Source: a virus
Length of the DNA: 64,000 bases
Reading direction: 5' to 3' (one strand)
Virus record (IMG/VR): IMGVR_UViG_3300045988_154892
The notes under the pieces were generated by a model. That model was given only the letters and a program-made list of their open reading frames with translations, made no database searches and had not been told where the DNA came from. The position numbers and the translations under genes are program-made. Below are positions 13,869 through 56,825 of the stretch, one piece after another (position 1 is the stretch's first letter; each line of letters begins with the position of its first letter).

Positions 13869-14024
13869 AGAATAAATAATTGTCCAAGCATGAAAGACAT
13901 AAAACTTATCATGTATCGCAATACAAGCTTCCACTTGTAATAAACTGATCACTTAAGCGATGGGTTTGGATCAGCATCCTTGTTAGGAAACATCCTAAAC
14001 TGATGAAGCAACTATCGCACACAT

Positions 14025-14105
14025 GCTGGCGTGGCGGAATTGGTATACGCACTGGCTTCAAATACCAGGATCACAGATATGTGGGTTCGAGTCCCACCGT
14101 CAGTA
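14025..14105 (+). tRNA. tRNA-Leu (anticodon CAA), class II, no encoded CCA
   Basis: Hand-folded cloverleaf. Acceptor GCTGGCG/CGTCAGT has two G:U pairs. D arm GCG-GAATTGGTATA-CGC. Anticodon loop TTCAAAT (CAA at 14059-61, C31:A39 mismatch). Long variable arm. T arm GTGGG-TTCGAGT-CCCAC. Confidence 0.75.
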
Positions 14106-14109
14106 TTTA

Positions 14110-14261: not shown

Positions 14262-14335
14262 GGATCATTAGTTCAGTAGGTTAGAACGCCCAGCTCATAA
14301 CTGGGAAGTCACTGGTTCAAGTCCAGTATGATCCA
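14262..14335 (+). tRNA. tRNA-Met or Ile2 (anticodon CAT), no encoded CCA
   Basis: Perfect cloverleaf. Acceptor GGATCAT/ATGATCC. D arm GTTC-AGTAGGTTA-GAAC. Anticodon arm CCCAG-CTCATAA-CTGGG. T arm ACTGG-TTCAAGT-CCAGT. A paired 1:72 argues against an initiator. Confidence 0.9.
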
Positions 14336-14425
14336 CTTTACTTTTCTGAAGGAATATAATGGATGATTGTATCATTTGACTTGATGAAAAGTTAATTTCA
14401 TAAGTTTTAAAGAAAGGAAGTAGTT

Positions 14426-34988: not shown

Positions 34989-35216
34989 ATGAAATTTCAA
35001 AAATATAATTACTTCTCAAACGCCTTAAACAAAAAGTATAAAGTTACTTTCGAAGTTTATAAAGGATACGAGGAAAATATTGTTGGGATATTGTTAAATT
35101 ATAATTCTGGCAATCTTGACTTATATAATGAAGAAAAAGGTGAATTATATCATATTCCATTTTCGGGATTAAAATGGCTTTTGCCTGTAAAAGATAAAAA
35201 CAAAATAAATTCTTAG
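34989..35216 (+). CDS. hypothetical protein
   Basis: ORF track. AGAGGAAA SD upstream. Confidence 0.5.
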   Translation: MKFQKYNYFSNALNKKYKVTFEVYKGYEENIVGILLNYNSGNLDLYNEEKGELYHIPFSGLKWLLPVKDKNKINS

Positions 35217-35374
35217 AGCGTTTCAGCTCAAAAATTTCCAATTGGACAAGAGAATAATATATTAGATGGTTGCAAACATCTAGTTATGAAATTGAATTTT
35301 CATTATATTAAATAAAGAAAGGAGTATGAGATTTGTGCGCACATTAAAGAATTCTTTACTCTTAGTAGTTACTA

Positions 35375-36109
35375 TTGAAATACATGGGATCAAAATCTCG
35401 AATATCGAAATATATAATTCCGATTATTCAAAAGAGGATAAAAGATTATAATATAAAAACGTACATAGAGCCGTTCTGTGGTGGATGTAATATTGTTGAT
35501 AAGATTCAATGTGATACGAAGATTGCATCCGATAATCATAAGTATCTTATAGAAATGTTCAAGAATCTAAATCAGATTCAAAGACTTCCAGAGTTTATTA
35601 CAAAAGAACACTATTCAAATGTAAGAGAATGTTTTAATAAAGGTTTAACTACATATCCAGATTGGTATATTGGAGCTATTGGTTTTCTTGCAAGTTACAA
35701 TGGACGCTTTTTCGATGGCGGATACTCAGGTATTGTACATACAAAAGCTGGAACTGAGAGAAATTATTATGATGAAGCAAGAAGAAATTTATTAATGCAG
35801 ATTTCACAGTTAAAAGACATACAGTTCCAATATGGAGATTATGAAGAATTGTATTCAGATAAAATTGATTGTTTACTTTACTGTGATATTCCATATTACG
35901 GGGTAAAACAATATGGTACAAGCAAAAACTTTGATTATGATAGATTTTGGAATTGGGCTGAAAAAATGAGCGAAAAGAATATTATTCTGGTTAGTGAACA
36001 TAAAGCACCTTCAGGATGGGATTGTATTTGGGAACAGGAAGTAAAAAGAACAATTGATAATAACAAGCGTGTAAAAGCAGTAGAAAAATTATTTGAGATA
36101 AGAGAATAA
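35375..36109 (+). CDS. dam: N6-adenine DNA methyltransferase (Dam/D12 class)
   Basis: YMGSKSRISKYI, motif I EPFCGGCNI, motif IV LLYCDIPYYG (DPPY variant). The start is TTG 35375 or ATG 35384. Confidence 0.8.
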   Translation: MKYMGSKSRISKYIIPIIQKRIKDYNIKTYIEPFCGGCNIVDKIQCDTKIASDNHKYLIEMFKNLNQIQRLPEFITKEHYSNVRECFNKGLTTYPDWYIGAIGFLASYNGRFFDGGYSGIVHTKAGTERNYYDEARRNLLMQISQLKDIQFQYGDYEELYSDKIDCLLYCDIPYYGVKQYGTSKNFDYDRFWNWAEKMSEKNIILVSEHKAPSGWDCIWEQEVKRTIDNNKRVKAVEKLFEIRE

Positions 36110-36131
36110 ATAACCAGGAGATGAAGTTGTA

Positions 36132-36455
36132 ATGAAGATATCAGAATTACAAGCAGTTTGTAAGTACGATGACAGTGAAATGGAAGAAGTTAAAAACTGC
36201 CATCCAAAACAGATTGCAAGTGAAGTAATTCCTATTCCAACTTGGAAGATTAAATATAAGTATACAACTGCTCGTGGAAATCCAAAAGAAGCAGTAAAGT
36301 ATATGTTCTTAGATAAGAATGCCTGGGATTCTGTCGATCAGGAATTCATGAATTATATAAAAGAACTTAATGAAAAACATCCGGAAAGAATAGCATCAAA
36401 CGTAGAAATTCTTGACGCAGTTTATTTCGGAAAACTTTATTTAGAACTTGAATAA
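36132..36455 (+). CDS. small protein, paralog of 37961..38317
   Basis: Shares NCHPK/NVHPK, P.WK/P.YK, Y.T..GN.K and N..P motifs with the 118-aa ORF 1.8 kb downstream. Confidence 0.6.
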   Translation: MKISELQAVCKYDDSEMEEVKNCHPKQIASEVIPIPTWKIKYKYTTARGNPKEAVKYMFLDKNAWDSVDQEFMNYIKELNEKHPERIASNVEILDAVYFGKLYLELE

Positions 36456-36650
36456 TAAATATTTTTCAATTGTAATCAAATCCCTGTAATCAGGGTTGTA
36501 TAGCGAGATGGCTTGTATTACCCATGCAGCATAGTGACATGAGGTTAAAACGTAAAATCTTACACCATGACCTAAAATAATTGGTTTCTAAGCATAAGAT
36601 AGACTCCTTTAACTAATTGGTAAAATCCAAAAGTTAAAGGAAGATTACAA
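36456..36650 (+). promoter_or_regulatory. conserved structured leader with RBS-sequestering hairpin (copy 1)
   Basis: Hairpin CCCTG-TAAT-CAGGG followed by GGTTGT (36482-99). AGTGAC (36533-38), CGTAAAA (36551-57), ACACC (36562-66). CCTTTAAC (36606-13) pairs with GTTAAAGG (36633-40), which covers the SD AAAGGAAG. TTG start at 36651. Confidence 0.5.
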
Positions 36651-37697
36651 TTGAATCCGATATTCAATGAATATATCAAATTTTTAAGAGACACTTTTGG
36701 AGAAGAATTACCTTATTTAAAAGAAGGATTCTTTTGGCTTGATAAACAGATTATAAAAGGCTTTGATAGTCAACTTGTAGAACATAAATTTTACAGAGTT
36801 AAAGTATCAGATAACCTAAAAAAAGTAGAAATTCTAAAATTAAAATCTTATGAAGATCCATCTGAAGTTGACATAATAAATTGGAATACGATGGTTAGCA
36901 TCAAAGAGAATCAATTGATAGAACTTGAGCATGAATCCTTATATCTGATACGTGAGAAAATCAAAGACTATAATGCATATACTCCAATAATACCTGTTTC
37001 TATGGGTAAAGATTCTATGGTTACATGTCATTTAGTTCGAAAACTATATCCAAACACAAAAGCAATATTCAATAATACATCACTTGACTGTGCTGATACA
37101 TATAAGATGGTTAAACGATTTCCGAATTGCGAAATTATGAATCCAGACAAAGGATTTTATCAATATGTAAAATCTGATTCTATGATTCCGTCAAGATTTT
37201 CAAGATTCTGTTGTAGGATTTTTAAAGTTGGAGTTATGGTTTCTCAGCTTGATAATAAGCATCCGTATTTAATTTTTATGGGAATGAGAAATGAAGAATC
37301 AAACACAAGAAGCAATTATCAAGATGAATGGGTTAATACTTCCGAATGGGGAGACACATGTTGGCAAGGAATACTTCCTATTAGAAAGTGGACAGAGTTA
37401 GATGTTTGGCTTTATACATTTTGGAGAGATATTGAAGTCAATTCAAAATATAAAAAAGGATATTCAAGAGTTGGATGCCATTGTGCTTGTCCGTATTATG
37501 CGAAGTCAACATGGATTCTTGATAAATATTGGTATCCAAAAGCATATAAAAGATGGAGAGATATTCTAAGAGAAGATTTTATTAACAATCAGAAATGGCT
37601 GATTATGAATTGCACTATCAAAGAGTATCTTACTCAAGCATGGAATGGTGGTGTGTTTAGAAGTGAGCCACACAAGAAGTTATTGATGAATTTGTAG
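36651..37697 (+). CDS. PAPS-reductase-like PP-loop ATPase (IbrA/DUF3440-type), C-terminus in another frame to 37930
   Basis: PP-loop VSMGKDS, plus CCRIFK, GMRNEESNTR and GYSRVGCHCACPY. The frame stops at 37697. An 87-codon Zn-ribbon tail (EVIDEFVEHTGIDKQIALQYF..CCECN..CKKC) is open in the -1 frame over 37667..37930. Confidence 0.7.
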   Translation: MNPIFNEYIKFLRDTFGEELPYLKEGFFWLDKQIIKGFDSQLVEHKFYRVKVSDNLKKVEILKLKSYEDPSEVDIINWNTMVSIKENQLIELEHESLYLIREKIKDYNAYTPIIPVSMGKDSMVTCHLVRKLYPNTKAIFNNTSLDCADTYKMVKRFPNCEIMNPDKGFYQYVKSDSMIPSRFSRFCCRIFKVGVMVSQLDNKHPYLIFMGMRNEESNTRSNYQDEWVNTSEWGDTCWQGILPIRKWTELDVWLYTFWRDIEVNSKYKKGYSRVGCHCACPYYAKSTWILDKYWYPKAYKRWRDILREDFINNQKWLIMNCTIKEYLTQAWNGGVFRSEPHKKLLMNL

Positions 37698-37960
37698 AAC
37701 ATACAGGAATTGATAAACAGATTGCGCTGCAATATTTTAATAAGAAATGTTGTGAGTGCAATAAGAGAATAAAACATAAGGAAGTTCTTTCAATGAACTT
37801 AAAAATACATGGAAGACAAGTTAATAAATTCTATTGTAAGAAATGTTTGATGAAAGAATTCGATTGGACAAAAGAAGATTGGGACAAACAGGTGGAAGCG
37901 TTTAAGGCTCAAGGTTGTGCGTTGTTCTAGGTTTTATTGGTAGAAAGGTGGTGAAAAGTA

Positions 37961-38317
37961 GTGCATCCGAGTGAGTTTTTTAAGAATTGTTCTCTAAGGA
38001 CAGGAATTGATATATTTGAAATCTACGATACAGATTTAAAAGAAAAATTAAAAAATGTGCATCCAAAGAATTTCCTGAAAACAAAAATTACATTGCCAGT
38101 ATATAAAGTCAATTTATCTTATCTTACAGAAAAAGGTAATTACAAAACAGTTGACAGATATGCGGTAATGGATTCAAGTGCAGATGATGAGTATTTTGAT
38201 TTCTGGCTCGATATGTTTATGAGAGATTATAATAATGATAATCCAAATCACAAGATGATAAATTGTGAAATAAACAACATAGAAAGACTTTGCGAAGCTG
38301 TACTACCAATTGGTTAG
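37961..38317 (+). CDS. small protein, paralog of 36132..36455
   Basis: GTG start after AAAGGTGGTG. Shares motifs with the 107-aa paralog. Confidence 0.6.
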   Translation: MHPSEFFKNCSLRTGIDIFEIYDTDLKEKLKNVHPKNFLKTKITLPVYKVNLSYLTEKGNYKTVDRYAVMDSSADDEYFDFWLDMFMRDYNNDNPNHKMINCEINNIERLCEAVLPIG

Positions 38318-38524
38318 CTTTTCACCATATGTATTTAATACCTTTGTGCAGCAAAGGTTGTCACGATGATTTATAGAAGACGGATCATTGGTTAATATAA
38401 ATCGAAAAAGCAATGTGGTAGTGACGTAAAAAGACACCCACGATAAAAATGAATAAGTCTCATTTTTAAAGAGTATGGCTTTACCTCATTGAAATGAAAT
38501 AATTTTCAGTGAGGAAAGTACATA
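38318..38524 (+). promoter_or_regulatory. conserved structured leader with RBS-sequestering hairpin (copy 2)
   Basis: Hairpin CCTTTG-TGCAG-CAAAGG followed by GGTTGT (38341-60). AGTGACGTAAAA (38420-31), ACACC (38434-38). CCTCATTGAAA (38484-94) pairs with TTTCAGTGAGG (38504-14), which covers the SD GAGGAAAG. TTG start at 38525. Confidence 0.5.
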
Positions 38525-39538
38525 TTGGTACAGAAAGCTAATACAATTGAGGAACTATTAAATGATTGTCCTGTAAATCAAACGATTTGTGACAACTTAA
38601 TTCGTGCATGGGTAATTATTAATAATACAAAATATAAGAAAATCATTTGTTCAATCTCAGGCGGTTCTGACAGTGATGTAATGTTAGATATCGTTTGGAG
38701 ATGTGACAAAGATAATAAAGTAGATTATGTGTGGTTTGATACTGGACTGGAATATCAAGCAACAAAAGATCATTTGAAATTTCTTGAAGGAAAATACGAT
38801 ATTGCATTTCATTCTTACAAGGCTATAAAACCTATTCCTACATCTTGCAAGGAATATGGACAACCATTCTTATCAAAACAAGTCAGTGAATTTATCCAAA
38901 GATTACAAAAGTATAACTTTCAATGGGAAGATGAAGATTTTGACACATTATATAAGAAATATCTAAAATGTAAGTCTGCCTTGGAATGGTGGTGTTGCAG
39001 CAAAGGTAACGACAGTTGTTTCAATATTACAAGAAACAAATGGTTGAAAGAATTTATGATTGCAAATCCTCCAACGTTTAATATTTCAAACAAGTGTTGT
39101 AAATATGCAAAGAAAAATGTTGCGCATAACATTGTAAAGTATGGAATAGATGGCAAATTATTTGACTTACAGATTATAGGTATCAGGAAAGCTGAAGGTG
39201 GTGCTAGATCAACAGCATACAAATCATGCTTTGATGATAATAACGACATTGACAATTATAGACCTTTGTTCTGGTATAAAAATTCAGATAAAGAAGATTA
39301 TGAGAAAGCATATGGAATTATTCATAGTGATTGTTACTTGGAATATGGTTTAAAACGTACAGGATGTTGTGGTTGTCCTTATGGAAGAGATTTTGAGAAT
39401 GAATTAGATGTAATTGAGAAGTATGAACCTAAACTATATAAAGCAGTAACGAATATTTTCAAAGATTCTTATGAATATACAAGAAAGTACGTGGAGTTTA
39501 GAAAAATGATGGATGAGAAGGAGAGAATCAAACAATGA
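38525..39538 (+). CDS. PAPS-reductase-like PP-loop ATPase (second, divergent copy)
   Basis: PP-loop SISGGSDS, plus CCKYAKK, GIRKAEGGARS and GLKRTGCCGCPYG. Confidence 0.7.
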   Translation: MVQKANTIEELLNDCPVNQTICDNLIRAWVIINNTKYKKIICSISGGSDSDVMLDIVWRCDKDNKVDYVWFDTGLEYQATKDHLKFLEGKYDIAFHSYKAIKPIPTSCKEYGQPFLSKQVSEFIQRLQKYNFQWEDEDFDTLYKKYLKCKSALEWWCCSKGNDSCFNITRNKWLKEFMIANPPTFNISNKCCKYAKKNVAHNIVKYGIDGKLFDLQIIGIRKAEGGARSTAYKSCFDDNNDIDNYRPLFWYKNSDKEDYEKAYGIIHSDCYLEYGLKRTGCCGCPYGRDFENELDVIEKYEPKLYKAVTNIFKDSYEYTRKYVEFRKMMDEKERIKQ

Positions 39539-39804
39539 GAATATTAGCAGTACATAATGACCATATAAAGAAACCAGATCCAGAAAGAAAGTATGGTTGT
39601 GTTTGTAACAAATGTGGTACAGTATTTATTTTTGCAAGGTCTGAAGCTTGTATTCCAAGATGTATTAACCCAAAACCTAGTCAATGCACAGTTAGATGTC
39701 CAAATTCTAGTTGTCAGAACGTTATGACATTTGATTTGTGTAAGGAATTAAAAACTCTTACAGATGAGAATGATTTTTGCGATTTCTATGCAGATGATAA
39801 ATAA
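39535..39804 (+). CDS. Cys-rich small protein
   Basis: CVCNKCG...CPNSSC. Overlaps the upstream stop by 4 nt. Confidence 0.5.
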   Translation: MRILAVHNDHIKKPDPERKYGCVCNKCGTVFIFARSEACIPRCINPKPSQCTVRCPNSSCQNVMTFDLCKELKTLTDENDFCDFYADDK

Positions 39805-39876
39805 ATATATGAATTTTGGGTTTCATTTATCTTTGCTATTATAACCAAAATAAGGTAATACACTGAGGAATCGACT

Positions 39877-40092
39877 ATGGAAGAAATGATTGAAAAATTA
39901 AAAGAATGGGTTAATAAAAACTATGATCCATATGCATGTGGATTTACACCACAGCGTTCAGAAGGAAATTATTATGATTGTTTCTTTGATGGAGAATCTT
40001 GTGGTACATCGTATGCTGCATATGAAGTAGGACAAATCTTAGGTTTAGAGCTTGCTCCACCAGAAGATGACGGAGAGAATAATGAATATTAA
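39877..40092 (+). CDS. hypothetical acidic protein
   Basis: ORF track. TGAGGAA SD upstream. Confidence 0.5.
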   Translation: MEEMIEKLKEWVNKNYDPYACGFTPQRSEGNYYDCFFDGESCGTSYAAYEVGQILGLELAPPEDDGENNEY

Positions 40093-40113
40093 TTATTGAA
40101 TGAATGAGCGTGT

Positions 40114-40446
40114 ATGTGGTGGGATTACCATGGTAGACCCAAAATCAAAGAAAAAATATGTTTCTTTAATGACATACAAGAGATTAATATGACACGAAAT
40201 ACAGTCGAACAATGTCATGATTATATAAGGTATAAACCAATCATTACAAAAGATGAAAGAACTCTTTCGTTTTCAGCAAATATATCAAAGATCAATCCAG
40301 CAATTCTTAGCGCTGATCTTTCTAAGACGCCAGATCAAGTTAATATTTTGTATGTCAAGAAAATCCAAGCAAGAAAACATCATAAGAAGAGAATTAATAA
40401 AAAATGGCTTAAACGTTATGGGTACAAAGAGCAGTTGTTTAATTAG
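40114..40446 (+). CDS. hypothetical basic protein
   Basis: ORF track. C-terminal KKIQARKHHKKRINKKWLKRYG. Confidence 0.45.
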   Translation: MWWDYHGRPKIKEKICFFNDIQEINMTRNTVEQCHDYIRYKPIITKDERTLSFSANISKINPAILSADLSKTPDQVNILYVKKIQARKHHKKRINKKWLKRYGYKEQLFN

Positions 40447-40512
40447 GACGATGGAATTGTAAATCAACTGATCAATTTGGTGAAGAATATAAATTTACAA
40501 GAAAGGTAATAG

Positions 40513-40797
40513 ATGATGCTAATTCCGACAGTACCAGCAAAAGAATTTGAAAAATTCGGATTTAAAAAATGTAAAGGAATGCCAAAAGATACAGAGTGTT
40601 ATTATCTTTGTGTAGCACGAGGGTCTAAGATGTTATTTGTTAGTAATATATATTTTGGAGTAAATGATTGGATAAAGGACGATCAAAGAATTCATAAAAA
40701 TGCCAATTGCAGATATAGCGATAAAAGAGATTATCTTGATATTGTTTATGAATTAATTAAAGAAGGTATGTTAAAAAGCAGTTTTTATAAGAGGTAA
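40513..40797 (+). CDS. hypothetical protein
   Basis: ORF track. AAAGGTAA SD upstream. Confidence 0.5.
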   Translation: MMLIPTVPAKEFEKFGFKKCKGMPKDTECYYLCVARGSKMLFVSNIYFGVNDWIKDDQRIHKNANCRYSDKRDYLDIVYELIKEGMLKSSFYKR

Positions 40798-40801
40798 AAC
40801 C

Positions 40802-41110
40802 ATGAAAAACAAATTACTAATATTTTTGTGTGTCAGTATTTTACTATCATTTTCAGGATGTAGAGTAGAATCAGCACAAGCAAATGTAAAAACGAACGAT
40901 ACTGTAACAGTAAAATCTCTTGGAACCGATAATTTAATTAACATTGGTGGATATTTATATTATGATAGTACAACAAAAATCGTGTATTTTTGGAACGGAT
41001 CAATTGGATATGGTCGAGCTTCAACAACACCATCACCATATTTTGCGCCAAATGGTCTTCCATATAAGTATGAACCAGAAACAAATACATTTGTAGAAAT
41101 CACAGAATAG
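40802..41110 (+). CDS. putative lipoprotein
   Basis: Signal peptide MKNKLLIFLCVSILLSFSGC with lipobox LSFSGC. Confidence 0.6.
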   Translation: MKNKLLIFLCVSILLSFSGCRVESAQANVKTNDTVTVKSLGTDNLINIGGYLYYDSTTKIVYFWNGSIGYGRASTTPSPYFAPNGLPYKYEPETNTFVEITE

Positions 41111-49507: not shown

Positions 49508-50250
49508 ACAATTATGAACTAGTAACAGATCTCTCAAATAATAAGCTCAGAAAGAATGGATTCACCTTTGGTTGTTATCGAATGAGTGTATATAAAGATA
49601 CGATTGAGTTTCGTCTATATATTGATATTGAGGAACAGGACGTATTCTATCAAGTGTTCGACTCAGATCATAATCAGCTCTATATTCCTTATTACAACAG
49701 AAAATATGGTAATAACAAGATTGTAAAAGAGATTGATAGAAAAATTAATCGTATCATAAAAACTATGATGAACCAAAAAATCCTAAAGAAAACAAAAGAA
49801 GAGGAGAAAAATACTATGGATACAGAAACAATTAAAATTAAATACTTTGCAGATATCGAACCAATCGCACCTATTCAAAATGGTGATTGGATTGACCTAA
49901 GAGCTGCAGAAGACGTACATCTCAAAAAAGGTGAATTTAGACTTATTTCTCTTGGCGTTGGAATGAAACTTCCTGATGGATATGAAGCGCACATTGCACC
50001 TAGAAGCAGTACATATAAGAATTTTAAGATTATGCAATGTAACTCGATTGGGATCGTTGATAACTCTTACAGTGGGCCACAGGACTGTTGGAAATATCCA
50101 GCAATTGCTATGGAAGATACAGTTATCCATAAAAACGATCGTATCTGTCAGTTCCGTATCATGAAGAAACAGCCAGAAATTCATTTCGAAACTGTTAAAG
50201 AGCTAAGTGGCAAAAGTCGTGGTGGTTTTGGAAGTACAGGTAAAAACTAA
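49495..50250 (+). CDS. dut: dUTPase with ~105-aa N-terminal extension (internal start possible at 49816)
   Basis: The C-terminal 145 aa carry trimeric dUTPase motifs (DLRA, PRSS, GIVDNSYSG, RGGFGSTG). An in-frame ATG at 49816 is preceded by GAGGAG. Confidence 0.8.
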   Translation: MLDLNNYELVTDLSNNKLRKNGFTFGCYRMSVYKDTIEFRLYIDIEEQDVFYQVFDSDHNQLYIPYYNRKYGNNKIVKEIDRKINRIIKTMMNQKILKKTKEEEKNTMDTETIKIKYFADIEPIAPIQNGDWIDLRAAEDVHLKKGEFRLISLGVGMKLPDGYEAHIAPRSSTYKNFKIMQCNSIGIVDNSYSGPQDCWKYPAIAMEDTVIHKNDRICQFRIMKKQPEIHFETVKELSGKSRGGFGSTGKN

Positions 50251-50251
50251 T

Positions 50252-50452
50252 ATGGACGACGATCTGCAATACAGAGAAGAAAATTGGGCATGGGATGCTC
50301 AATGTGCAGCGGTGGATGAGAGAATATTAACTTGTCCACGCTGCGGATCAATTATGCTTCCTCAGTTCCAAAGATATGAATATATGGGAGCTGGATGGGA
50401 AGAATGGTATGAATGTACCAATGGCACATGTGGCTATTGTTGCAAAATATAA
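50252..50452 (+). CDS. small Zn-ribbon protein
   Basis: Same frame as track ORF 50207..50452, using ATG 50252. CPRCGS...CTNGTCGYCC. Confidence 0.5.
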   Translation: MDDDLQYREENWAWDAQCAAVDERILTCPRCGSIMLPQFQRYEYMGAGWEEWYECTNGTCGYCCKI

Positions 50453-50475
50453 ATTATGCAAAGGAGAACAAAACA

Positions 50476-50715
50476 ATGAAACTACAAAAACAAATCATTC
50501 TTGACAACGTTGATAAAGTAAAAGCGTTTGTTATGACAGTCAGCAAATATCCTGGGGATGCAACACTTACATCTGGAAGATATGTTGTTGATGCAAAATC
50601 CATTATGGGTATCTTCAGCCTTGCTCTAAATCAGCCAATTGATTTTACCTATGAAGGTGAACTAGCAGCAGAGCTTGCGAAAGAAGTCCAAGTATACGAA
50701 AGTCAGGAGGTATAA
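50476..50715 (+). CDS. HPr/Crh-like small protein lacking His15 (second copy)
   Basis: VDAKSIMGIFSLAL matches the HPr Ser46 region. No His at the phosphocarrier position. ATG 50476 follows AAGGAGAA. Confidence 0.55.
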   Translation: MKLQKQIILDNVDKVKAFVMTVSKYPGDATLTSGRYVVDAKSIMGIFSLALNQPIDFTYEGELAAELAKEVQVYESQEV

Positions 50716-50719
50716 ACCA

Positions 50720-51340
50720 TTGAATAATTTTAAGAAAAAACTAACAACTACTGTAACTCTACTAACCGTATTACTCACTCCAACACTGGCTAATGCAGAG
50801 ACTAAATATGTCGAACCTAGCATCGGTCTTAATTATCGAACAGGTGATTCTGTTAAGTCTCAGAAGATTGGTGCTCTTCCATATGGAGCATCAGTAGAGG
50901 TGCTTGACATCACAGAGAGCAACTGGGCAAAAGTACAGATTGGCGATAATGTATTCTATATGTCAAATGAATATCTTTCTGATACCCCACTTATCGCAGA
51001 GCCTATTCAACAGGCTGAACCAATTGAGACGGAATCCGTAGAGACAACTTCTTATTCCTGCTACAGTCTTGGTACATATCGAATCACTCATTACTGCGGA
51101 TGTGCAAACTGCAATGGTTCCTGGGCTGGCAGTCCAACGGCATCTGGTGCATATCCTGTAGCTGGCAGAACAGTTGCCATGGCTGATTTACCGTTTGGAA
51201 CTGAAGTAGAAATTAACGGTCAGATCTACACTGTAGAAGATCGTGGAGTGCCGAGTGGATGCGTTGATATTTATGTCGACAACCATTCTGAAGCTCTTAA
51301 TGCAGGTATGTATTATGCAGAAGTTAGAGTAGTGGGATAG
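50720..51340 (+). CDS. secreted SH3 + 3D-domain cell-wall protein
   Basis: TTG 50720 lies 9 nt after AGGAGG. Signal peptide ...TVLLTPTLANA. 3D-domain signature YRITHYCGC..CNG...TASG...VA.......G..V...G..YTVEDRG...DIY. Confidence 0.7.
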   Translation: MNNFKKKLTTTVTLLTVLLTPTLANAETKYVEPSIGLNYRTGDSVKSQKIGALPYGASVEVLDITESNWAKVQIGDNVFYMSNEYLSDTPLIAEPIQQAEPIETESVETTSYSCYSLGTYRITHYCGCANCNGSWAGSPTASGAYPVAGRTVAMADLPFGTEVEINGQIYTVEDRGVPSGCVDIYVDNHSEALNAGMYYAEVRVVG

Positions 51341-51369
51341 TTGACATGGAGAAAATCTGAGGTTATAAT
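51341..51369 (+). promoter_or_regulatory. perfect sigma70/sigmaA consensus promoter
   Basis: TTGACA (51341-46), 17-nt spacer, TATAAT (51364-69). Begins directly after the stop codon at 51338-40. Confidence 0.7.
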
Positions 51370-51385
51370 ATCCCCAACAAGGTTT
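51355..51385 (-). repeat. copy 1 (inverted) of the TTGGGGAT-core repeat
   Basis: The minus strand reads TTGTTGGGGATATTATAACCTCAGAT. Core ATCCCCAA at 51370-77. Overlaps the -10 box. Confidence 0.55.
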
Positions 51386-51571
51386 TCTCTATGTCCCAGG
51401 GCAATCCAGTTGATCCTCAAAAGGGCAAAGTCACTGATCCCCTAGCCGTTCGCTAACAGATCACCAACCGCCCCTTTTCCGGATCATCAGCCCGGACACA
51501 AGCCCAACCATCTATAAAATCAAAATGAAGACCTTGTAACCATGAAAAATGTGGTTATGAGGTCTTTTTTT
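51376..51571 (+). ncRNA. orphan ~195-nt transcription unit (sRNA or leader; contains a 21-codon sORF 51391..51456)
   Basis: Bounded by the consensus promoter and a strong terminator. The interior is visibly GC-richer than its flanks. No SD precedes ATG 51391. Confidence 0.5.
51529..51571. terminator. strong, probably bidirectional, rho-independent terminator
   Basis: AGACCTTGTAACCA (51529-42) pairs with TGGTTATGAGGTCT (51552-65): 14 bp including 2 G:U, 9-nt loop, then T7. The reverse complement is followed by CATTTTGATTTT. Confidence 0.75.
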
Positions 51572-51614
51572 ATATTAATAGCAAATTATGCACAGATAAA
51601 AAGGCTTAAATACT

Positions 51615-51645
51615 GGGTTTTGGGGATGTGCAATTTTGAAATTTC
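51615..51645 (+). repeat. copy 2 of the TTGGGGAT-core repeat
   Basis: TTTTGGGGATGTGCAATT at 51618-35, which is 17/18 identical to copy 3. Core at 51620-27. Confidence 0.65.
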
Positions 51646-51707
51646 CCGATGAAACTGGGATTTCATCTGCTTTTATCTATCCCATATCCATTTCTCACCT
51701 GCCCTCT

Positions 51708-51848
51708 TCAAACATAGACTAAACCTTCCAGTCGGAAAAGTTTATACGAAATATATGTCAAAATATCTATTAAATATTCTATAGTCATATCAGCGGCAGA
51801 ACCAACAGTTTTGCCCTTTTTAGGCTCAAGGAGGTTGCCTTGAAACAT
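51708..51848 (-). CDS. 46-codon sORF whose 5' end is homologous to sORF 51391
   Basis: Minus-strand ATG at 51848: MFQGNLLEPKKGKTVGSAADMTIEYLIDILTYISYKLFRLEGLVYV*. The first ~16 codons align with MSQGNPVDPQKGKVTD, with synonymous differences. Confidence 0.3.
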   Translation of the reverse strand: MFQGNLLEPKKGKTVGSAADMTIEYLIDILTYISYKLFRLEGLVYV

Positions 51849-51864
51849 AGTATATTTTTTACTC

Positions 51865-51895
51865 TATTTTTGGGGATGTGTAATTATAGATATTA
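51865..51895 (+). repeat. copy 3 of the TTGGGGAT-core repeat (candidate tnsA-proximal transposon terminus)
   Basis: TTTTGGGGATGTGTAATT at 51868-85, core at 51870-77. The reverse complement contains TATAAT. Confidence 0.6.
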
Positions 51896-51945
51896 AAAAG
51901 TCTGGGAACCCGCATAAACACTGGATTCTTGATTTCCCAGATTTT

Positions 51946-52044
51946 CCCAAAAACAACAGGATTTGGGTACTTATTCTTACACACGCCCAAAAACAAGCAT
52001 TTTTGGGTACTTTTCGAAACACACATAATTCATTTTTGGGTAAC
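51946..52044 (+). repeat. three direct TnsB-binding-site-like repeats upstream of tnsA
   Basis: CCCAAAAACAACAGGATTTGGGTAC (51946-70), CCCAAAAACAAGCATTTTTGGGTAC (51986-52010), CATAATTCATTTTTGGGTAAC (52024-44). TTTGGGTA starts at 51962, 52002 and 52035. Confidence 0.55.
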
Positions 52045-52077
52045 TTTTTCGACACATAAAATCAAAGGAGGTACACT

Positions 52078-52422
52078 ATGTACAAGAAAAACTACAAAGG
52101 ACGCTGTGAGAAAAAGTCTCTTTCTAAATGTGACACGATCTGCCGATGCTATAGCACCATCCAATCTGTTTATGCAGACAAACTGGAAACCGATCCATCT
52201 GTTCAATCCTTTCAATGTAACACGCCACTCGAAGATGAAGACTACACAACAGACTTCCTTATTACACGACAGGACGGCACGCAATATGTCCGAGAGTGTG
52301 TAGAACGAAGTCATCTGACCAGGCCCAAGCCACTTACAATCAAACTTCTGGACACATCACGTTCCTACTGGCTTGCCCATAACGTTCAAGATTGGGGGAT
52401 TGTAACAGATGCAGAAAGCTGA
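52078..52422 (+). CDS. tnsA: short TnsA-like protein (N-terminal nuclease fold only, catalytic residues apparently substituted)
   Basis: AAGGAGG SD upstream. STIQSVYADKLETDPSVQSF..TPL, YTTDFLI and SYW....WGIVTDAE align with Tn7 TnsA SDLE...FPL, STDFLV and RYW...WFIFTDKE (alignment from memory). 114 aa. Confidence 0.6.
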   Translation: MYKKNYKGRCEKKSLSKCDTICRCYSTIQSVYADKLETDPSVQSFQCNTPLEDEDYTTDFLITRQDGTQYVRECVERSHLTRPKPLTIKLLDTSRSYWLAHNVQDWGIVTDAES

Positions 52423-54142
52423 TATAGCCTATATCAATAACACGTTCTACAGAATTTTAAAGACATCAGATAACCAGACCCTTGTAATTGACTGTCTCCA
52501 TCCGAAAATGCCATTCTGGACGATCAGAACGCAATATACCCCATTGCCAGAGAAGCAATTATATGATGTTCTAAACATCACACCACCAGATGTGAAAGAC
52601 CTTACATCTGATCAGATGCGCATTGCACATGAGCGGTACACACTGATTGCACCAATTTTATACCACTTAGGAGAAAGCACAGCAACTGCAAACATCATCT
52701 CTTCCATCTCAGAAGAGCATAACATTAGTAAGCAGACCATCCGCCGCTATCTATATCAATATCTAATCTTTCAGACCATCACTGTACTTGCACCAAAAGT
52801 TCATACGAAAGAAAAGGTGCTGACTAAAGATGAGAAGAACATGAGATGGGCATTGAATAAGTTCTTCTATACACGCAGACAAAACAGTCTTGTGACAGCA
52901 TATGAGATGATGTTAAAAGAAAAGTATTGTGACAGCATGGGACAGCTACTATCCGATCATCCATCCTTTTATCAGTTCCGATACTTTTACCGGAAAACTA
53001 AGAAGCTCCAAACTTATTATATTTCCAGAGATGGACTGTCAAATTACCAGAGGAACAATCGTCCCTTGCTAGGAGATGGTATCCGTGAGTTCGCAACCAA
53101 TATCGGTACTGGTATGTTTGATTCCACCGTATGTGACATTTACCTTATTGACGAAACCGGTACCTTAAAAGGTCGTCCGATCCTAACCACTTGCATTGAT
53201 GCTTACAGCAGTATGTGTTATGGCTATGTTCTCTCATGGAATAACGATACAAAGAGTTTATGCCATCTGCTCCAAAATATACTTACCGACAAAACAGAAT
53301 GGTGTAGAAAGTTTGGTATCCCATTAGACAAATCCCAGTGGAACGTGCAAGAGTTACCGGGCATCTTTATCACTGATATGGGACGGGAATACACATCAGA
53401 ATCCTTTGCACAGATCACAGAAACAGGCGTGACTATGGTAAATCTTCCACCATACAGACCAGAGTTGAAAGGTGCTGTAGAGAAATTCTTTGACATCATT
53501 CAATCCATGTATAAACCACTTCTCAAGGGTAAAGGTGTGATTGATCCGGACTTCCAGGAACGAGGTGCAAGAGATTACAGATTAGATGCTTGCTTGACAA
53601 TGTTTGATTTTGAGAAGATCATCTTACGCTGTATCATTTACTATAACAGTCAACGGCTCATAGAACGATTCCCTTACACACAATCTATGATTCATGATGG
53701 AGTAAAGCCATATGCAGCCAGTTTATGGGAATGGGGAAGACGGCAACCAGGCGCAAATTTAATTTCATTCCCGCATGATACCGCGAAAATAATCCTATAT
53801 CTGCTCCCACGTACCATTGGGACATTCACTAGGCGTGGTCTAGTGGTAAAAGGGATGCGGTATAAACGGGATGATTGCGCCGAAAGATTCCTGCAAGGTG
53901 GAGATGTTAAGGTTGCTTACGATCCAGATGATGTATCTGTAGTATGGACAGTAGAGAAGGGCGAGTTTATTCCTTTTGAATTGGTTGAAAGCAGATATAA
54001 GAATAGAAAATTGGATGAAGTAGAGCAGATCAAAGAACAGAGCAAAACAACACTACGTTCTGAACAAATCAATGCAAGACAGGCGAAAATTAATTTGATG
54101 AATGAGATCGAGTTGATTGCTAGGGGAGGAGTTAAAAGATGA
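52409..54142 (+). CDS. tnsB: TnsB-like DDE transposase
   Basis: HTH ISKQTIRRYLYQY. DDE candidates CDIYLID, ITDMGREYTS and YRPELKGAVEKFF. Mu-transposase-type C-terminal barrel GLVVKGMRYKRD. Confidence 0.85.
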   Translation: MQKADIAYINNTFYRILKTSDNQTLVIDCLHPKMPFWTIRTQYTPLPEKQLYDVLNITPPDVKDLTSDQMRIAHERYTLIAPILYHLGESTATANIISSISEEHNISKQTIRRYLYQYLIFQTITVLAPKVHTKEKVLTKDEKNMRWALNKFFYTRRQNSLVTAYEMMLKEKYCDSMGQLLSDHPSFYQFRYFYRKTKKLQTYYISRDGLSNYQRNNRPLLGDGIREFATNIGTGMFDSTVCDIYLIDETGTLKGRPILTTCIDAYSSMCYGYVLSWNNDTKSLCHLLQNILTDKTEWCRKFGIPLDKSQWNVQELPGIFITDMGREYTSESFAQITETGVTMVNLPPYRPELKGAVEKFFDIIQSMYKPLLKGKGVIDPDFQERGARDYRLDACLTMFDFEKIILRCIIYYNSQRLIERFPYTQSMIHDGVKPYAASLWEWGRRQPGANLISFPHDTAKIILYLLPRTIGTFTRRGLVVKGMRYKRDDCAERFLQGGDVKVAYDPDDVSVVWTVEKGEFIPFELVESRYKNRKLDEVEQIKEQSKTTLRSEQINARQAKINLMNEIELIARGGVKR

Positions 54143-55347
54143 ACGGTAAATTACTTTCACAATTGCCTGATTTTTTATGTGAAAACGAATTAGTAGAACG
54201 ACTGAAGATATTACCAAACTATAATATAAACATTGCCAATGAAACAATACCAACTCGTCTTCTTGCGTTATCAGAATTATATGATATTTATATTCCATCA
54301 CAATTATCTGTTGATGTATATAATAAATTGTATATGGCATTACTCAGATCGATTAAGAAAAAAGAAAATGATATGATGGTAAAACAGCAAAGAATCGAAA
54401 ATACAACAAACACCATACAAACGTATAATGGTATTATAGGTGGTGCTGATTCGTTTACAATCATTGGAGTTTCTGGCATAGGGAAGAGTAGTGCTATTAC
54501 CAGAGCGATCTCATTGATTTTCGGAAATCATTTTATCGAAACAACAGACCCATATCAACGAATTGCTCCTTTTATACTTGTGCAATGCCCATTTGACTCT
54601 TCTGTAAAAAGTCTATTGTTAGAAATCGTTCGTATTCTTGATGCTACATTGGATGGAGATTATTTACAGATAGCACAACGGTATACGACGGATAGACTAA
54701 TCGGTTTTGTTAGCCAAATATGTTTAAATCATGTTGGGGTACTTATTGTTGATGAGATTCAAAATGTAGTTAATAATAAAAACGGTGATAAACTTATTGG
54801 GGCATTAACACAGATTATAAATAGTAGTGGAATTAGTGTAGGCATGGTTGGAACACCAGAATGTCTACATTGGTTTGAAAGCGCACCACATCTGGAACGA
54901 AGGACAATAGGCTTGCGATATTTACGGACTGATTATGATGATGATTTTATACATTTTTGCAAAAATCTATTAAAATTTCAATATGTGCAACAATACACAG
55001 AACCATCAGAAAAATTTATAAATTGGTTGTATGCTCATTCAAACGGAGTGACATCAACTGTTGTATCATTATTTTATAGAGCACAAGAATTAGCCATTAT
55101 GAGTAACACAGAGAAATTAAGTATTGATATTTTTAATGCGTCATACAATGGGCTGATGTCTATGCAAGTAGAAAAAGTGCAAAAGAAAAATAGTCAAACA
55201 GTCAATAAATCACATAAAGAAATAACAATTCATCATTCGAATGGTGTTAATATTGCTGACTTATACAATTATTCACAATCTAATAACTATGATCTCTTAA
55301 CTCTTATCAAAAATACTTTTACTGTTGAAGAGGTGGAAATATGTTAA
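54139..55347 (+). CDS. tnsC: TnsC/TniB-like AAA+ ATPase
   Basis: Walker A GVSGIGKSS, Walker B LIVDEIQN. 4-nt overlap with tnsB. Confidence 0.85.
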   Translation: MNGKLLSQLPDFLCENELVERLKILPNYNINIANETIPTRLLALSELYDIYIPSQLSVDVYNKLYMALLRSIKKKENDMMVKQQRIENTTNTIQTYNGIIGGADSFTIIGVSGIGKSSAITRAISLIFGNHFIETTDPYQRIAPFILVQCPFDSSVKSLLLEIVRILDATLDGDYLQIAQRYTTDRLIGFVSQICLNHVGVLIVDEIQNVVNNKNGDKLIGALTQIINSSGISVGMVGTPECLHWFESAPHLERRTIGLRYLRTDYDDDFIHFCKNLLKFQYVQQYTEPSEKFINWLYAHSNGVTSTVVSLFYRAQELAIMSNTEKLSIDIFNASYNGLMSMQVEKVQKKNSQTVNKSHKEITIHHSNGVNIADLYNYSQSNNYDLLTLIKNTFTVEEVEIC

Positions 55348-56825
55348 ATTATTTTCCTAAAATATATGACTATGAATTGTTCTATAGCATATATTCAAGA
55401 TTGAAACAAGATATAAATGTACAGAGCAATCAATCTTTTAAAGAAATCGTGTTTAAACGACCGAATGAATACATCGAAATATTTTATATAAACGAACCAA
55501 GTGACATACTACATTCTTTTATGTCAAAAAATTATATTATTAATGACTTATACTATAACCATACTATGTTTTTTTACTGGTCTGTATTTCTAAACGAATC
55601 GGATAAAGAAAATGCGTTGAGAAAGCTCATATCAAATGACAAAAGTTTTTTAGAATACCTTTCCCCAAGACCAAAACATAAACATCAAAAAATATTTCTA
55701 AAATATTGTCCATTATGTGCAAAAGAAAATCGAGAGCAATATCATGAAACATATTGGAATGCTTTCCATCAAATTCCAGAAATTAATGTTTGTGTAATTC
55801 ATGGATGTAAACTCAAAGATTCATCGGTTCATGTTAACAATTCAAGAATAATAAATTTTCTAACGGCTGAAAATTGCATTAATGATGATTATTCATATGA
55901 TATGGGAACCATCGGTGAAATCAAGGCTGCAAAATACCTATATCAATTGGTAGTAAGAAAACAGAGTCTTAAGAACGGTATTACGATGTTTGACGTATTT
56001 TACAGGAAGTTAATTCAAAAGAAATATATCAATCAGCTTTCATGGCTCCAACACAAGTCGGTATTTTTAAATAATTTTAAACAATATTTATCTGACAATA
56101 ACATAAAGGAAGCTTGTCAAATAAAAGCAATGAGTAATATATTCTTAAATAAAGCGAATCCACTTAGAACAATTCATATATTATTATTTTTAGATATACA
56201 AATATCTGATATTTTTGTATGCAAAACGGCGAAACAAATTGATTTGGAATTAATTGAAAGAATTCGATCAGAGTATACAAAAGATAACGGTATAAACAAA
56301 CTTGCGAAGCAATATCATATTTTACCTTGTAATGTAAGTAAAATAATTAACGGTCAATATGAAGTTGAAAAACAAAAATTAATAAGCCAAAATTATGCAC
56401 ATAGCAGCAGTAGGAATATACCGCCTAAAGGAAAGAGGCATTCTGAATTAGATAAAAAGTATTATCCTAAAATTGAATATTATATTGACTTATATTTTAA
56501 GAATTCTGACAAAGTTAGAAGATTAACTGTAGGAGGATTTAATGTTTTCATGCAACAAATTTGTCAGGACATCAGAAGAAATGATTTTTATTATATGCCA
56601 CAATGCTATAAGTATATTAAAACAAAAGAAAAACCAATAGAGGATTATTGGGTCGATAAAATAAAATATATTGTCGATCAAATTGACAGCGATTATATTT
56701 CATATAACGAATTAAAGGGTATGGTACACATAATAGAAAAAAATATGATAAAAGCTATGGATATACTACAATACAGATATCCTGAAACGTACCTAAAAAT
56801 ACAGAAAAATAATAAAAAAGCGTAA
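55341..56825 (+). CDS. tniQ: TniQ/TnsD-like target selector
   Basis: N-terminal TniQ motif YELFYSIYSRL. Zn module CPLCAKE..(19 aa)..CVIHGC. HTH-like INKLAKQYHILPCNVSKI. 494 aa, which is TnsD-size. Confidence 0.8.
   Translation: MLNYFPKIYDYELFYSIYSRLKQDINVQSNQSFKEIVFKRPNEYIEIFYINEPSDILHSFMSKNYIINDLYYNHTMFFYWSVFLNESDKENALRKLISNDKSFLEYLSPRPKHKHQKIFLKYCPLCAKENREQYHETYWNAFHQIPEINVCVIHGCKLKDSSVHVNNSRIINFLTAENCINDDYSYDMGTIGEIKAAKYLYQLVVRKQSLKNGITMFDVFYRKLIQKKYINQLSWLQHKSVFLNNFKQYLSDNNIKEACQIKAMSNIFLNKANPLRTIHILLFLDIQISDIFVCKTAKQIDLELIERIRSEYTKDNGINKLAKQYHILPCNVSKIINGQYEVEKQKLISQNYAHSSSRNIPPKGKRHSELDKKYYPKIEYYIDLYFKNSDKVRRLTVGGFNVFMQQICQDIRRNDFYYMPQCYKYIKTKEKPIEDYWVDKIKYIVDQIDSDYISYNELKGMVHIIEKNMIKAMDILQYRYPETYLKIQKNNKKA

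Follow-up and report, generated by a model that had tools for sequence, protein, structure and literature searches.

Positions 36132-39538 of a 64,000-nucleotide (nt) stretch of viral DNA (IMG/VR record IMGVR_UViG_3300045988_154892; the whole stretch is called the window below) carry two successive modules, A and B, each made of a gene for a small protein, a non-coding RNA of about 200 nt and a gene for a PP-loop enzyme of the PF01507 family. The question raised by this locus is what the RNA lying between the two genes does. An earlier reading of the DNA, made without database searches (the sequence-only reading), had proposed this two-module triplet layout, which the map of open reading frames (ORFs) bears out. 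Comparison with related loci revealed a conserved, pseudoknotted leader RNA in each module. As a whole, we give rather more credence than doubt to the reading, drawn from sequence analysis, that the leader is a cis-acting translational gate of a sulfur-transfer PP-loop enzyme, which would open when the upstream ORF is translated and might also respond to a ligand. Related loci are designated by L-numbers (for example L068 and L232); 80 loci were obtained from IMG/VR scans with the small proteins smallA and smallB, on phage contigs of up to 216 kb.

Both gaps between the small-protein and enzyme genes fold better than shuffled sequences (z = -6.0 for leader A and -4.7 for leader B, with none of 200 shuffles as good). 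Comparison of 60 unique B-type loci with the window showed that the leader gap is the best-conserved part of the module, above both flanking genes in nucleotide identity, with typical values of 91% for the leader versus 75-81% for the genes. In L097-type loci, where the enzyme is of a different subtype with a 28% identical protein, the leader is 78% identical versus 62% and 53% for its flanking genes; altogether the leader was found with three enzyme subtypes. The leader stands directly upstream of a PF01507 gene in 60/60 B-type loci. An 18-nt stretch, AAGTATGGCTTTRCCTCA, is present without mismatch in 114 viral contigs, and in all 60 unique cores it is located between a smallB homolog and a PF01507 gene.

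Analysis of the aligned leaders revealed six covarying helices, including an H-type pseudoknot (coordinates in Table 1). In a hand-drawn alignment of 21 sequences, 89.6% of the cells are paired versus 34-46% in slid controls, 20 pairs show double changes, and none of 500 shuffles matches this result. A second alignment, of 25 matches with distant ones included, was made with a covariance model from which the pseudoknot had been left out; it gave 91.9% paired cells versus 35-47% in slid controls and compensatory changes at 31 of 50 pairs, again matched by 0 of 500 shuffles. The pseudoknot helix, which is outside the model, occurs as GUGA/UCAC, GUGG/CCAC, GCGG/CCGC, GCGA/UCGC, GCGG/CUGU and GAGG/CUCC, and was identified by eye as GGUG/CACC in L230 and GGGC/GCCC in L231. 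Helix P1 varies between ACC/GGU, GUC/GAC and GGC/GCU. Since the changes all fit G-U wobble pairing on the + strand, the structure is that of an RNA on the sense strand. The sequence-only reading's proposal that each enzyme has its own structured leader is supported by both folding scores and covariation.

Between the helices of leader B, the single-stranded stretches CGAAAAAG, UA, GUAAAARGACAC and AGUAUGGCUUU are invariant. The UAAAAAUGAAUAAGUCUCAUUUUUAAAG hairpin insert is restricted to the window and L023-type relatives, which marks a variable-length site of the RNA. Two pairings proposed by RNAalifold were rejected. The P3 version UGUCACA/UGUGAUA gave way, on the strength of full compensatory changes, to GUCAC/GUGAC together with the pseudoknot GUGR/YCAC (P3 being GCCGC/GCGGC in L077 and GCUAC/GUAGC in L189), and a helix between AGUAUGGCUUU and the 3' strand of P1 was discarded as a conserved pairing, as L077 breaks it while P1 covaries.

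The covariance model scores leader B in the window at 179 bits. A search of Rfam 15 gave no match at E<=1 in positions 35000-41000, and the whole window contained only two tRNAs at the gathering score. In the literature searched, no description of this RNA and no link between an RNA motif and phage phosphoadenosine phosphosulfate (PAPS) reductases was found. We conclude with high confidence that the leader RNA is a real, conserved and pseudoknotted element; it represents a previously undescribed family of structured leaders dedicated to phage DndC/BrxP-like enzymes.

Leader A is homologous to leader B, though diverged from it. In a scan of the whole 64-kb window, the B model ranked it second, at full length (15.2 bits, E=0.16), and the model found no further leader copy in the window besides leaders A and B. 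The two have in common P1 with the start codon, P2 and the GGUUGU after it, a AUAGUGAC strand that encloses an internal hairpin by pairing with the UUGU region, the ACGUAAAA motif and an SD hairpin at the end. RNAalifold analysis of 11 A-type sequences from three clades revealed compensatory changes in P1 (U-A to C-G), while the internal, P4-like hairpin covaries (GCUUG/CAAGC, UCGUG/CACGA, UCAUG/CAUGA) and so does another helix (UCUUA/UAAGA vs UCUUU/AAAGA). Leaders built on this core were also detected ahead of other PF01507 genes, in L068-L075 and in L230, L231 and L232 (model E 7.5e-5 to 0.03), and two more same-core leaders were recognized by eye in L232.

The position of the leader relative to the two genes suggests its function. 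In both leaders of the window, the UUG start codon of the enzyme is located inside P1, and the last hairpin carries the Shine-Dalgarno sequence (SD; GAGG or AAGG) in its 3' arm. The same position is occupied by AUG in L077 and GUG in L189, which confirms UUG as the initiation site. When module B was folded with its flanks, P1 became longer by 16 pairs, formed between the last codons and stop of smallB and codons 3-9 of enzB. This extension into both ORFs is retained with other sequences in many lineages, such as AUUGGCU/AGCCAAU in L100.

In each of the contexts examined, six of them independent, an ORF terminates at the leader's 5' edge or within it. The distance from stop codon to P1 is 0-9 nt for smallB and 11 nt for smallA. 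L068, which has no small-protein gene upstream, harbors a 13-amino-acid (aa) upstream ORF (L068:4524-4565; MKILRTRKESTLS, stop) with its own SD and a stop codon in P2; the 115-aa protein encoded upstream in L068 was rejected as a remote small-protein homolog (hhalign probability 0.2%). In L232, a 14-aa upstream ORF behind AGGAGG (L232:4976-5020; LVQLYRQILYSRSL, stop) terminates in the P2 loop, and an 83-aa ORF ends at 1817, 1 nt apart from a leader starting at 1819. In L231, a 30-aa ORF ends at 2062, 7 nt apart from the second leader, which starts at 2070.

Based on these arrangements, each module would be a bicistronic unit in which the RNA of about 180-210 nt between the genes gates the enzyme gene. 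The default state would be OFF, P1 burying the UUG start and P6 burying the Shine-Dalgarno sequence. On arriving at the end of the upstream ORF, a ribosome would melt the 5' strand of P1 and free the start region, a step supported by the ORF end found at the 5' edge in every context. Enzyme synthesis would then be coupled to, and far below, upstream translation, and the invariant junction and pseudoknot nucleotides would probably bind a ligand or factor that sets the ease of opening, as in a riboswitch. The least that the small gene contributes is an upstream ORF with its end at P1. Our confidence is moderate that the leader gates translation in cis, and lower for the coupling to upstream translation.

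The proposed mechanism combines two known principles. The first is translational coupling through long-range mRNA pairing, as in the MS2 coat-replicase 'Min Jou' interaction and E. coli rpmI-rplT, or leader-peptide attenuation, as in ermC. As in these systems, one strand of a helix covers a downstream start while its partner strand is within an upstream ORF or at its end, and translation of that ORF should open the helix; here, however, a 170-nt pseudoknotted domain with invariant junctions separates the two strands and is kept despite swapped proteins, for which the classical cases offer no parallel. The second is illustrated by the pseudoknot riboswitches SAM-II and preQ1-II, which sequester the SD or start codon. 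Like them, the leader has an H-type pseudoknot at its core, unpaired positions that are conserved, and P1 or a terminal helix lying over the initiation region, but it is larger, with six helices, and has no Rfam match at E<=1.

Several observations weigh against the gate. When the 13-16 nt that follow the stop codon were blocked in silico, the start codon was only partly freed and the SD stayed paired in P6; upstream translation by itself may thus not suffice, and something more, for instance a ligand or a factor that acts on the conserved core, is likely to contribute. Moreover, about 180 nt with invariant junctions is more than simple coupling would call for, which leaves part of the RNA function unexplained. 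Homologs of enzB also occur behind a short leader or a putative invertible switch instead of the B leader, and a 55%-identical homolog in Clostridium phages CS266P1-4 overlaps its upstream ORF and has neither leader nor small protein. Enzyme homologs without a leader imply that the RNA is an accessory regulator and not an obligatory cofactor. As for the sulfur-transfer function of the product, no P-loop nucleoside triphosphatase (NTPase) partner of the DndD/SspC/BrxC type was seen within about 8 kb on either side, where the small flanking ORFs were not all scanned; in the known systems, such a partner is required for phosphorothioate synthesis (PMC12914056).

The alternatives to the B leader are diverse. 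Among the 80 closest enzB-like viral loci (62-94% identity), the B leader is present in 58, ending about 14 nt into the ORF. The other 22 have a short leader of about 70 nt, a 122-bp inverted-repeat segment or a juxtaposed cysteine desulfurase gene (L307). The short leader (GUUCACAUGUGAGUAAAGCUGCGCAGCUACUAUGGUGAAC...) is conserved before another subgroup of enzB-like genes in L283-L300 (around positions 1420-1500 of each locus) with unrelated upstream genes, and may be a second, smaller regulatory RNA. The 122-bp segment, flanked by 15-nt inverted repeats (AAATAATTTTTTCAT / ATGAAAAAATTAATT), lies in opposite orientations in L250:1344-1495 and L263:1344-1495, and looks like an invertible, phase-variable switch in place of the leader RNA. 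The presence of a conserved RNA gate or a putative invertible switch before many such genes suggests that their expression is tightly controlled and probably costly.

We then weighed whether the leader might chiefly be a metabolite-binding riboswitch, in which a small molecule linked to the pathway of the enzyme binds the pseudoknotted core, stabilises P1 and stops translation, the upstream stop position being incidental. The core is invariant despite diverged or swapped proteins (UU after P2, CGAAAAAG, UA between pseudoknot and P3, GUAAAA, CAC and AUGG), whereas peripheral helices vary, including the 28-nt insert; P1 covers the start codon as in many translational OFF switches; and the RNA is constantly upstream of one enzyme family. 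This last point also counts the other way, the RNA being associated with one gene family only, and an upstream ORF ending at the 5' edge in six independent contexts is hard to call incidental. We consider this explanation unlikely as a replacement for the gate, with which it is compatible, and ligand binding may be one layer of the gate.

A conserved structured RNA with covariation upstream of a consistent gene set, by which riboswitch classes are recognized, is what we found here. It is a tentative possibility, in our view rather unlikely, that the leader founds a new riboswitch or ribonucleoprotein class whose core binds a small molecule, or the enzyme as its substrate or cofactor, tied to sulfur-dependent nucleic-acid modification. 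In that case, the RNA would report the chemistry of the large, uncharacterised phage 'PAPS reductase' family. More generally, the ligand or opening signal of the RNA should point to the pathway of the enzyme.

The small proteins bear on another explanation, in which the leader is a protein-binding operator. The paralogy of smallA and smallB, claimed in the sequence-only reading, held on alignment (30% identity over 83 aa, BLASTP E=2e-12). Neither matches a Pfam, PHROG, NCBIfam or PADLOC family, and tblastn of smallB against phage records found nothing. Clustering of their family at 90% leaves 246 members and clustering at 50% leaves 160 representatives, nearly all standalone proteins of 100-140 aa. 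Distant members retain the order of small gene, 175-235-nt gap and PF01507 gene. About a dozen homologs of 200-240 aa consist of two tandem core domains (P0263, P0269, P0276; L230:3501-4157), which suggests that the single-domain proteins may act as dimers. The AlphaFold2 (AF2) model of smallB (mean predicted local distance difference test, pLDDT, 82.5) displays two short N-terminal helices, then a beta-hairpin, a helix and a long strand; Foldseek searches of PDB and BFVD returned only family members or non-significant eL20-like matches. The possibility that smallB is a ubiquitin-like sulfur carrier, considered for its conserved C-terminal ...LPIG, is not supported: it has a single Gly and not GG, smallA ends in LELE, and no beta-grasp match was obtained.

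Under the operator explanation, the small protein or the enzyme would repress or activate enzyme translation, like phage translational repressors or Aca-type regulators. The RNA type does follow the small-protein type, leader A accompanying smallA and leader B accompanying smallB even with the 28%-identical enzyme subtype; the tandem two-domain forms suggest a dimer; and there is a weak Foldseek resemblance to the rRNA-binding eL20/LX (E 0.04-0.1). However, these fold matches are not significant, and same-core leaders occur without a small-protein homolog upstream. The small proteins are also acidic, with an isoelectric point (pI) of about 5.1-5.3 (5.3 for both smallA and smallB) and a range of 4.7-6.1 across the family, which is atypical of RNA binders, although this is a weak argument. 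An operator of this kind seems improbable to us. From its sequence and context, the small protein could instead be a partner of the enzyme or a separate anti-defence protein.

Regarding the enzymes, their assignment to the PAPS-reductase PP-loop family in the sequence-only reading proved correct. PF01507 is matched by enzA at E = 9.1e-27 (94.6 bits) and by enzB at 3.7e-10 (40.5 bits; gathering cut-off 22.5), and phrog_424, 'phosphoadenosine phosphosulfate reductase', at 9e-28 and 4e-29, respectively. The two are very distant relatives, with a weak alignment of 22% identity over 154 aa (E=6e-4). The PP-loop motif SGGxDS is SGGSDS in enzB (residues 45-50) and a degenerate SMGKDS in enzA (117-122). 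Both harbor a CC...GC-x2-3-CP cysteine pattern, formed by CC187 and GCHCACP in enzA and by CC191-192 and GCCGCP (280-285) in enzB. APS (adenosine phosphosulfate) reductase holds a [4Fe-4S] cluster via CC...CxxC, and the CC191-192...C281/C284 pattern of enzB is alike.

An identity as assimilatory CysH, the grouping that the earlier reading had named as a check, was ruled out: scores against the NCBIfam CysH/APS-reductase models are far below the cut-offs (56.9 bits for a cut-off of 154, 50.6 for 165 and 47.1 for 235), and a regular-expression search found no catalytic C-terminal ECG[LIV]H in enzA or enzB. Neither enzyme matches the NCBIfam DndC model. In the PADLOC defence library, BrxP is the best match (enzA, 2e-34, model positions 85-360 of 779; enzB, 4e-8) and enzB also matches SspD (1e-4), the BrxP and SspD coverage being confined to the PAPS-reductase part. 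A PDB sequence search gave nothing for enzB, and CysD/CysH only, at 3e-6 or worse, for enzA. The best Foldseek matches of the enzB AF2 model (pLDDT 74) are the [4Fe-4S] tRNA thiolases NcsA/TtuA, APS/PAPS reductases and LarE, with E values of 4e-5 to 1e-3, template modeling scores (TM-scores) of about 0.35 against NcsA/TtuA/APS reductase and 10-14% identity.

These comparisons place the enzymes among several known systems. The nearest characterised relatives, BrxP, SspD and DndC, which are the PAPS-reductase-domain proteins of BREX type 4, Ssp and Dnd, make DNA phosphorothioate (PMC12914056, PMC12839542). The likeness to them includes the PF01507 PP-loop, the Cys-rich CC...GCxxC pattern, a DNA-modification-type neighbourhood and a cysteine desulfurase at one related locus; unlike them, enzA and enzB lack a DUF4007/SspB domain, are phage-encoded, far shorter than BrxP and located behind a leader RNA, with no DndD/SspC/BrxC NTPase seen near the modules. 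TtuA, NcsA and APS reductase resemble enzB in model structure (Foldseek E 4e-5 to 9e-4), and APS reductase also in the cysteine pattern, but differ by the low TM-scores and identities, the absent ECG[LIV]H tail and the sub-cut-off CysH/APS scores. A phage PAPS reductase has been reported to help Vibrio phages evade host Dnd (Piel et al. 2022, as cited in PMC13551039). Like other phage 'PAPS reductases' of PHROG 424, both enzymes match this family and are encoded in a variable region beside DNA methylases, similar to the anti-defence hotspots described in PMC13551039. The Vibrio protein is likened here by family name and context, not by sequence, and no leader RNA or small partner is described in the literature found.

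The label 'IbrA-type' given in the sequence-only reading did not stand. IbrA, a PAPS reductase with DUF3440 and a ParB-like partner, IbrB, shares PF01507 with both enzymes and an extra C-terminal region with enzA; however, PF01507 is the sole domain in a Pfam scan of full-length enzA (from L002), with no DUF3440, and no ParB-like ORF was seen adjacent, among neighbours whose small ORFs were not systematically scanned.

We infer that the enzyme behind the gate belongs to the DndC/SspD/BrxP/TtuA type of PP-loop ATP-pyrophosphatases, with CC...GCxxC as its iron-sulfur motif. Most likely it would adenylate and then thiolate a nucleic acid, be it DNA (in the backbone or a base) or tRNA, as counter-defence. 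In L307, a class-V aminotransferase/cysteine desulfurase gene (L307:2-1078; PF00266, 3.8e-65) stops 15 nt short of an enzB homolog with 65% identity, a contextual link that points to sulfur-transfer chemistry; no cysteine desulfurase gene was found in the window. The family is known by annotation (PHROG 424). Phage 'PAPS reductase' genes are very common, the module enzyme alone having more than 5,400 cluster-level homologs, and are usually annotated as auxiliary sulfur metabolism. Tight control is what would be expected of a nucleic-acid-modifying counter-defence enzyme.

The same enzymes raise the possibility that the RNA is their substrate, cofactor or guide, in a ribonucleoprotein or an RNA-dependent modification. 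The RNA is better conserved than either protein, the closest solved folds, NcsA and TtuA, adenylate and thiolate structured RNAs, and phage Mom offers a precedent of RNA-dependent DNA hypermodification (cited as reference 50 in PMC13551039). Yet enzyme homologs at 55-77% identity occur without the RNA, the SD and start codon shape both of its ends in the manner of a cis regulator, and no second copy exists elsewhere in the window, which makes such a role decidedly improbable.

The sequence-only reading had interpreted the locus as a tandem duplication serving a two-step or obligatorily dual modification. The adjacent modules are indeed paralogous, they are found side by side in the window and in about 10 related contigs, and the enzymes are divergent enough for different specificities. 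But modules A and B occur independently in related phages, so they are old, independently mobile paralogs and not the result of a recent tandem duplication. Their distribution is mosaic, with B alone in most related contigs, A alone in some, and one to three PF01507 enzymes in other combinations in other phages. Since the modules occur singly, an obligatory two-step pathway is unlikely, and with enzA frameshifted and enzB intact in the window we hold it to be very improbable. We infer instead that A and B act independently on different targets. The broader part of the claim, a role in nucleic-acid modification or anti-restriction, remains plausible from context: methylases are adjacent, a cysteine desulfurase is present in L307 and BrxP is the best match. 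L231 and L232 have two or three consecutive PF01507 genes, each preceded by 220-310 nt of non-coding sequence, and such module arrays thus recur among phages.

Finally, the idea that the small and enzyme ORFs are two exons of one gene, joined through a self-splicing intron or translational bypassing, can be dismissed, for although the order P3 5', pseudoknot 5', P3 3', pseudoknot 3' recalls the group I P3/P7 topology and 180-207 nt is near the lower size limit of group I introns, there is no Rfam intron match at E<=1, an SD is placed 6-7 nt before a codon that is in all cases a valid start (UUG, AUG or GUG), the small protein is never fused to the enzyme among the 246 and 160 homologs, leaders occur with unrelated upstream ORFs, and a bypassing ribosome that landed on the start-region GGU would continue out of frame.

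Table 1. Coordinates of the two modules, their immediate neighbours and the elements of the leader RNAs in the window. Paired strands are separated by a slash.
Feature	Coordinates	Strand	Description
D12-class N6-adenine DNA methyltransferase (Dam-like)	35375-36109	+	PF02086 1e-12, phrog_56 4.8e-30; directly upstream of module A
smallA	36132-36455	+	107 aa, acidic; also upstream ORF of leader A
Leader RNA, A type	36456-36664	+	gap 36456-36650 (195 nt); supported by fold z, covariance model, RNAalifold
Leader A P1	36467-36477 / 36643-36653		holds UUG start 36651-36653
Leader A P2	36482-36486 / 36491-36495		followed by GGUUGU
Leader A SD hairpin	36606-36614 / 36632-36640
enzA	36651-37930 overall; ORF 36651-37697	+	348-aa ORF; PF01507 PP-loop enzyme, Cys-rich C-terminal tail, frameshifted here
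45-aa ORF	37793-37930	+	tail of enzA, from ORF map and relatives
smallB	37961-38317	+	118 aa, acidic
Leader RNA, B type	38318-38538	+	gap 38318-38524 (207 nt); supported by covariation, covariance model
Leader B P1 extension	38307-38322 / 38533-38549
Leader B P1	38324-38336 / 38516-38529		ACCAUAUGUAUUU / AAGUACAUAUUGGU; holds UUG start 38525-38527
Leader B P2	38341-38346 / 38352-38357		hairpin, followed by UU
Leader B P3	38360-38364 / 38421-38425		GUCAC / GUGAC; encloses P4 and P4b
Leader B P4	38367-38375 / 38396-38404
Leader B pseudoknot	38415-38418 / 38438-38441		4 bp, GUGR / YCAC; crosses P3
Leader B lineage-specific hairpin insert	38444-38471		UAAAAAUGAAUAAGUCUCAUUUUUAAAG, 28 nt; between pseudoknot and AGUAUGGCUUU
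Leader B invariant stretch	38472-38482		AGUAUGGCUUU
Leader B P6	38484-38494 / 38504-38514		CCUCAUUGAAA / UUUCAGUGAGG; 3' arm with SD GAGG 38511-38514
enzB	38525-39538	+	337-aa PF01507 PP-loop enzyme, UUG start
89-aa Cys-rich ORF	39535-39804	+	overlaps enzB stop codon by 4 nt; several CxxC pairs

In the window, enzA is without one A at about position 37670, where every relative reads gagccAacac. This frameshift splits the gene into the 348-aa ORF and an 87-aa tail in the -1 frame (37667-37930), whereas in relatives (L002, L011 and L068) enzA is a single intact ORF of about 426-432 aa that includes the 45-aa ORF as its tail. The 1-nt deletion may be genuine, in which case it inactivates the gene, or else an error of sequencing. 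For annotation, enzA should be entered here as a frameshifted gene, and the gaps at such loci should not be considered empty.

The 89-aa ORF that follows enzB may be co-translated with it. It lies directly 3' of enzB in L004, L007-L010 and L015-L019 and is displaced or absent elsewhere, and its membership in the module is uncertain; no family scored above threshold for it, and it does not resemble the C-terminal tail of enzA. Promoter and terminator scans of the region performed no better than shuffles, and megablast of the region against 50,697 phage records found nothing.

The methyltransferase upstream of module A is the Dam enzyme that the sequence-only reading had placed there. A D12 or C5 (PF00145) methylase is likewise found close upstream of the module in several related lineages, and the neighbours within about 8 kb in the window are small ORFs, the methylase and a NAD ligase. 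The hosts are probably Lachnospiraceae/Clostridia, because of a Clostridium sp. contig, Coprococcus genomes with close homologs and an anaerobic ribonucleotide reductase in the window. The leader would add a new structured RNA family from gut Clostridia phages.

Other features of the window were also recorded. The two phage tRNAs are tRNA-Leu(CAA) at 14024-14106, which reads UUG codons, and a tRNA-Met/Ile2-like(CAT) at 14262-14336; in cells, a CAT-anticodon tRNA can be a substrate of the PP-loop enzyme TilS. Positions 8139-10766 encode an 875-aa P-type cation-transporting ATPase (E1-E2 ATPase, Cation_ATPase_C/N) amid replication genes, an unusual phage cargo. The 50000-56800 segment is richer in GC (0.40-0.41 vs about 0.32) and encodes a 577-aa protein with an rve integrase core and a Mu-transposase C-terminal domain (52409-54142), after which come two large ORFs; the segment is possibly a transposable element that has inserted there.

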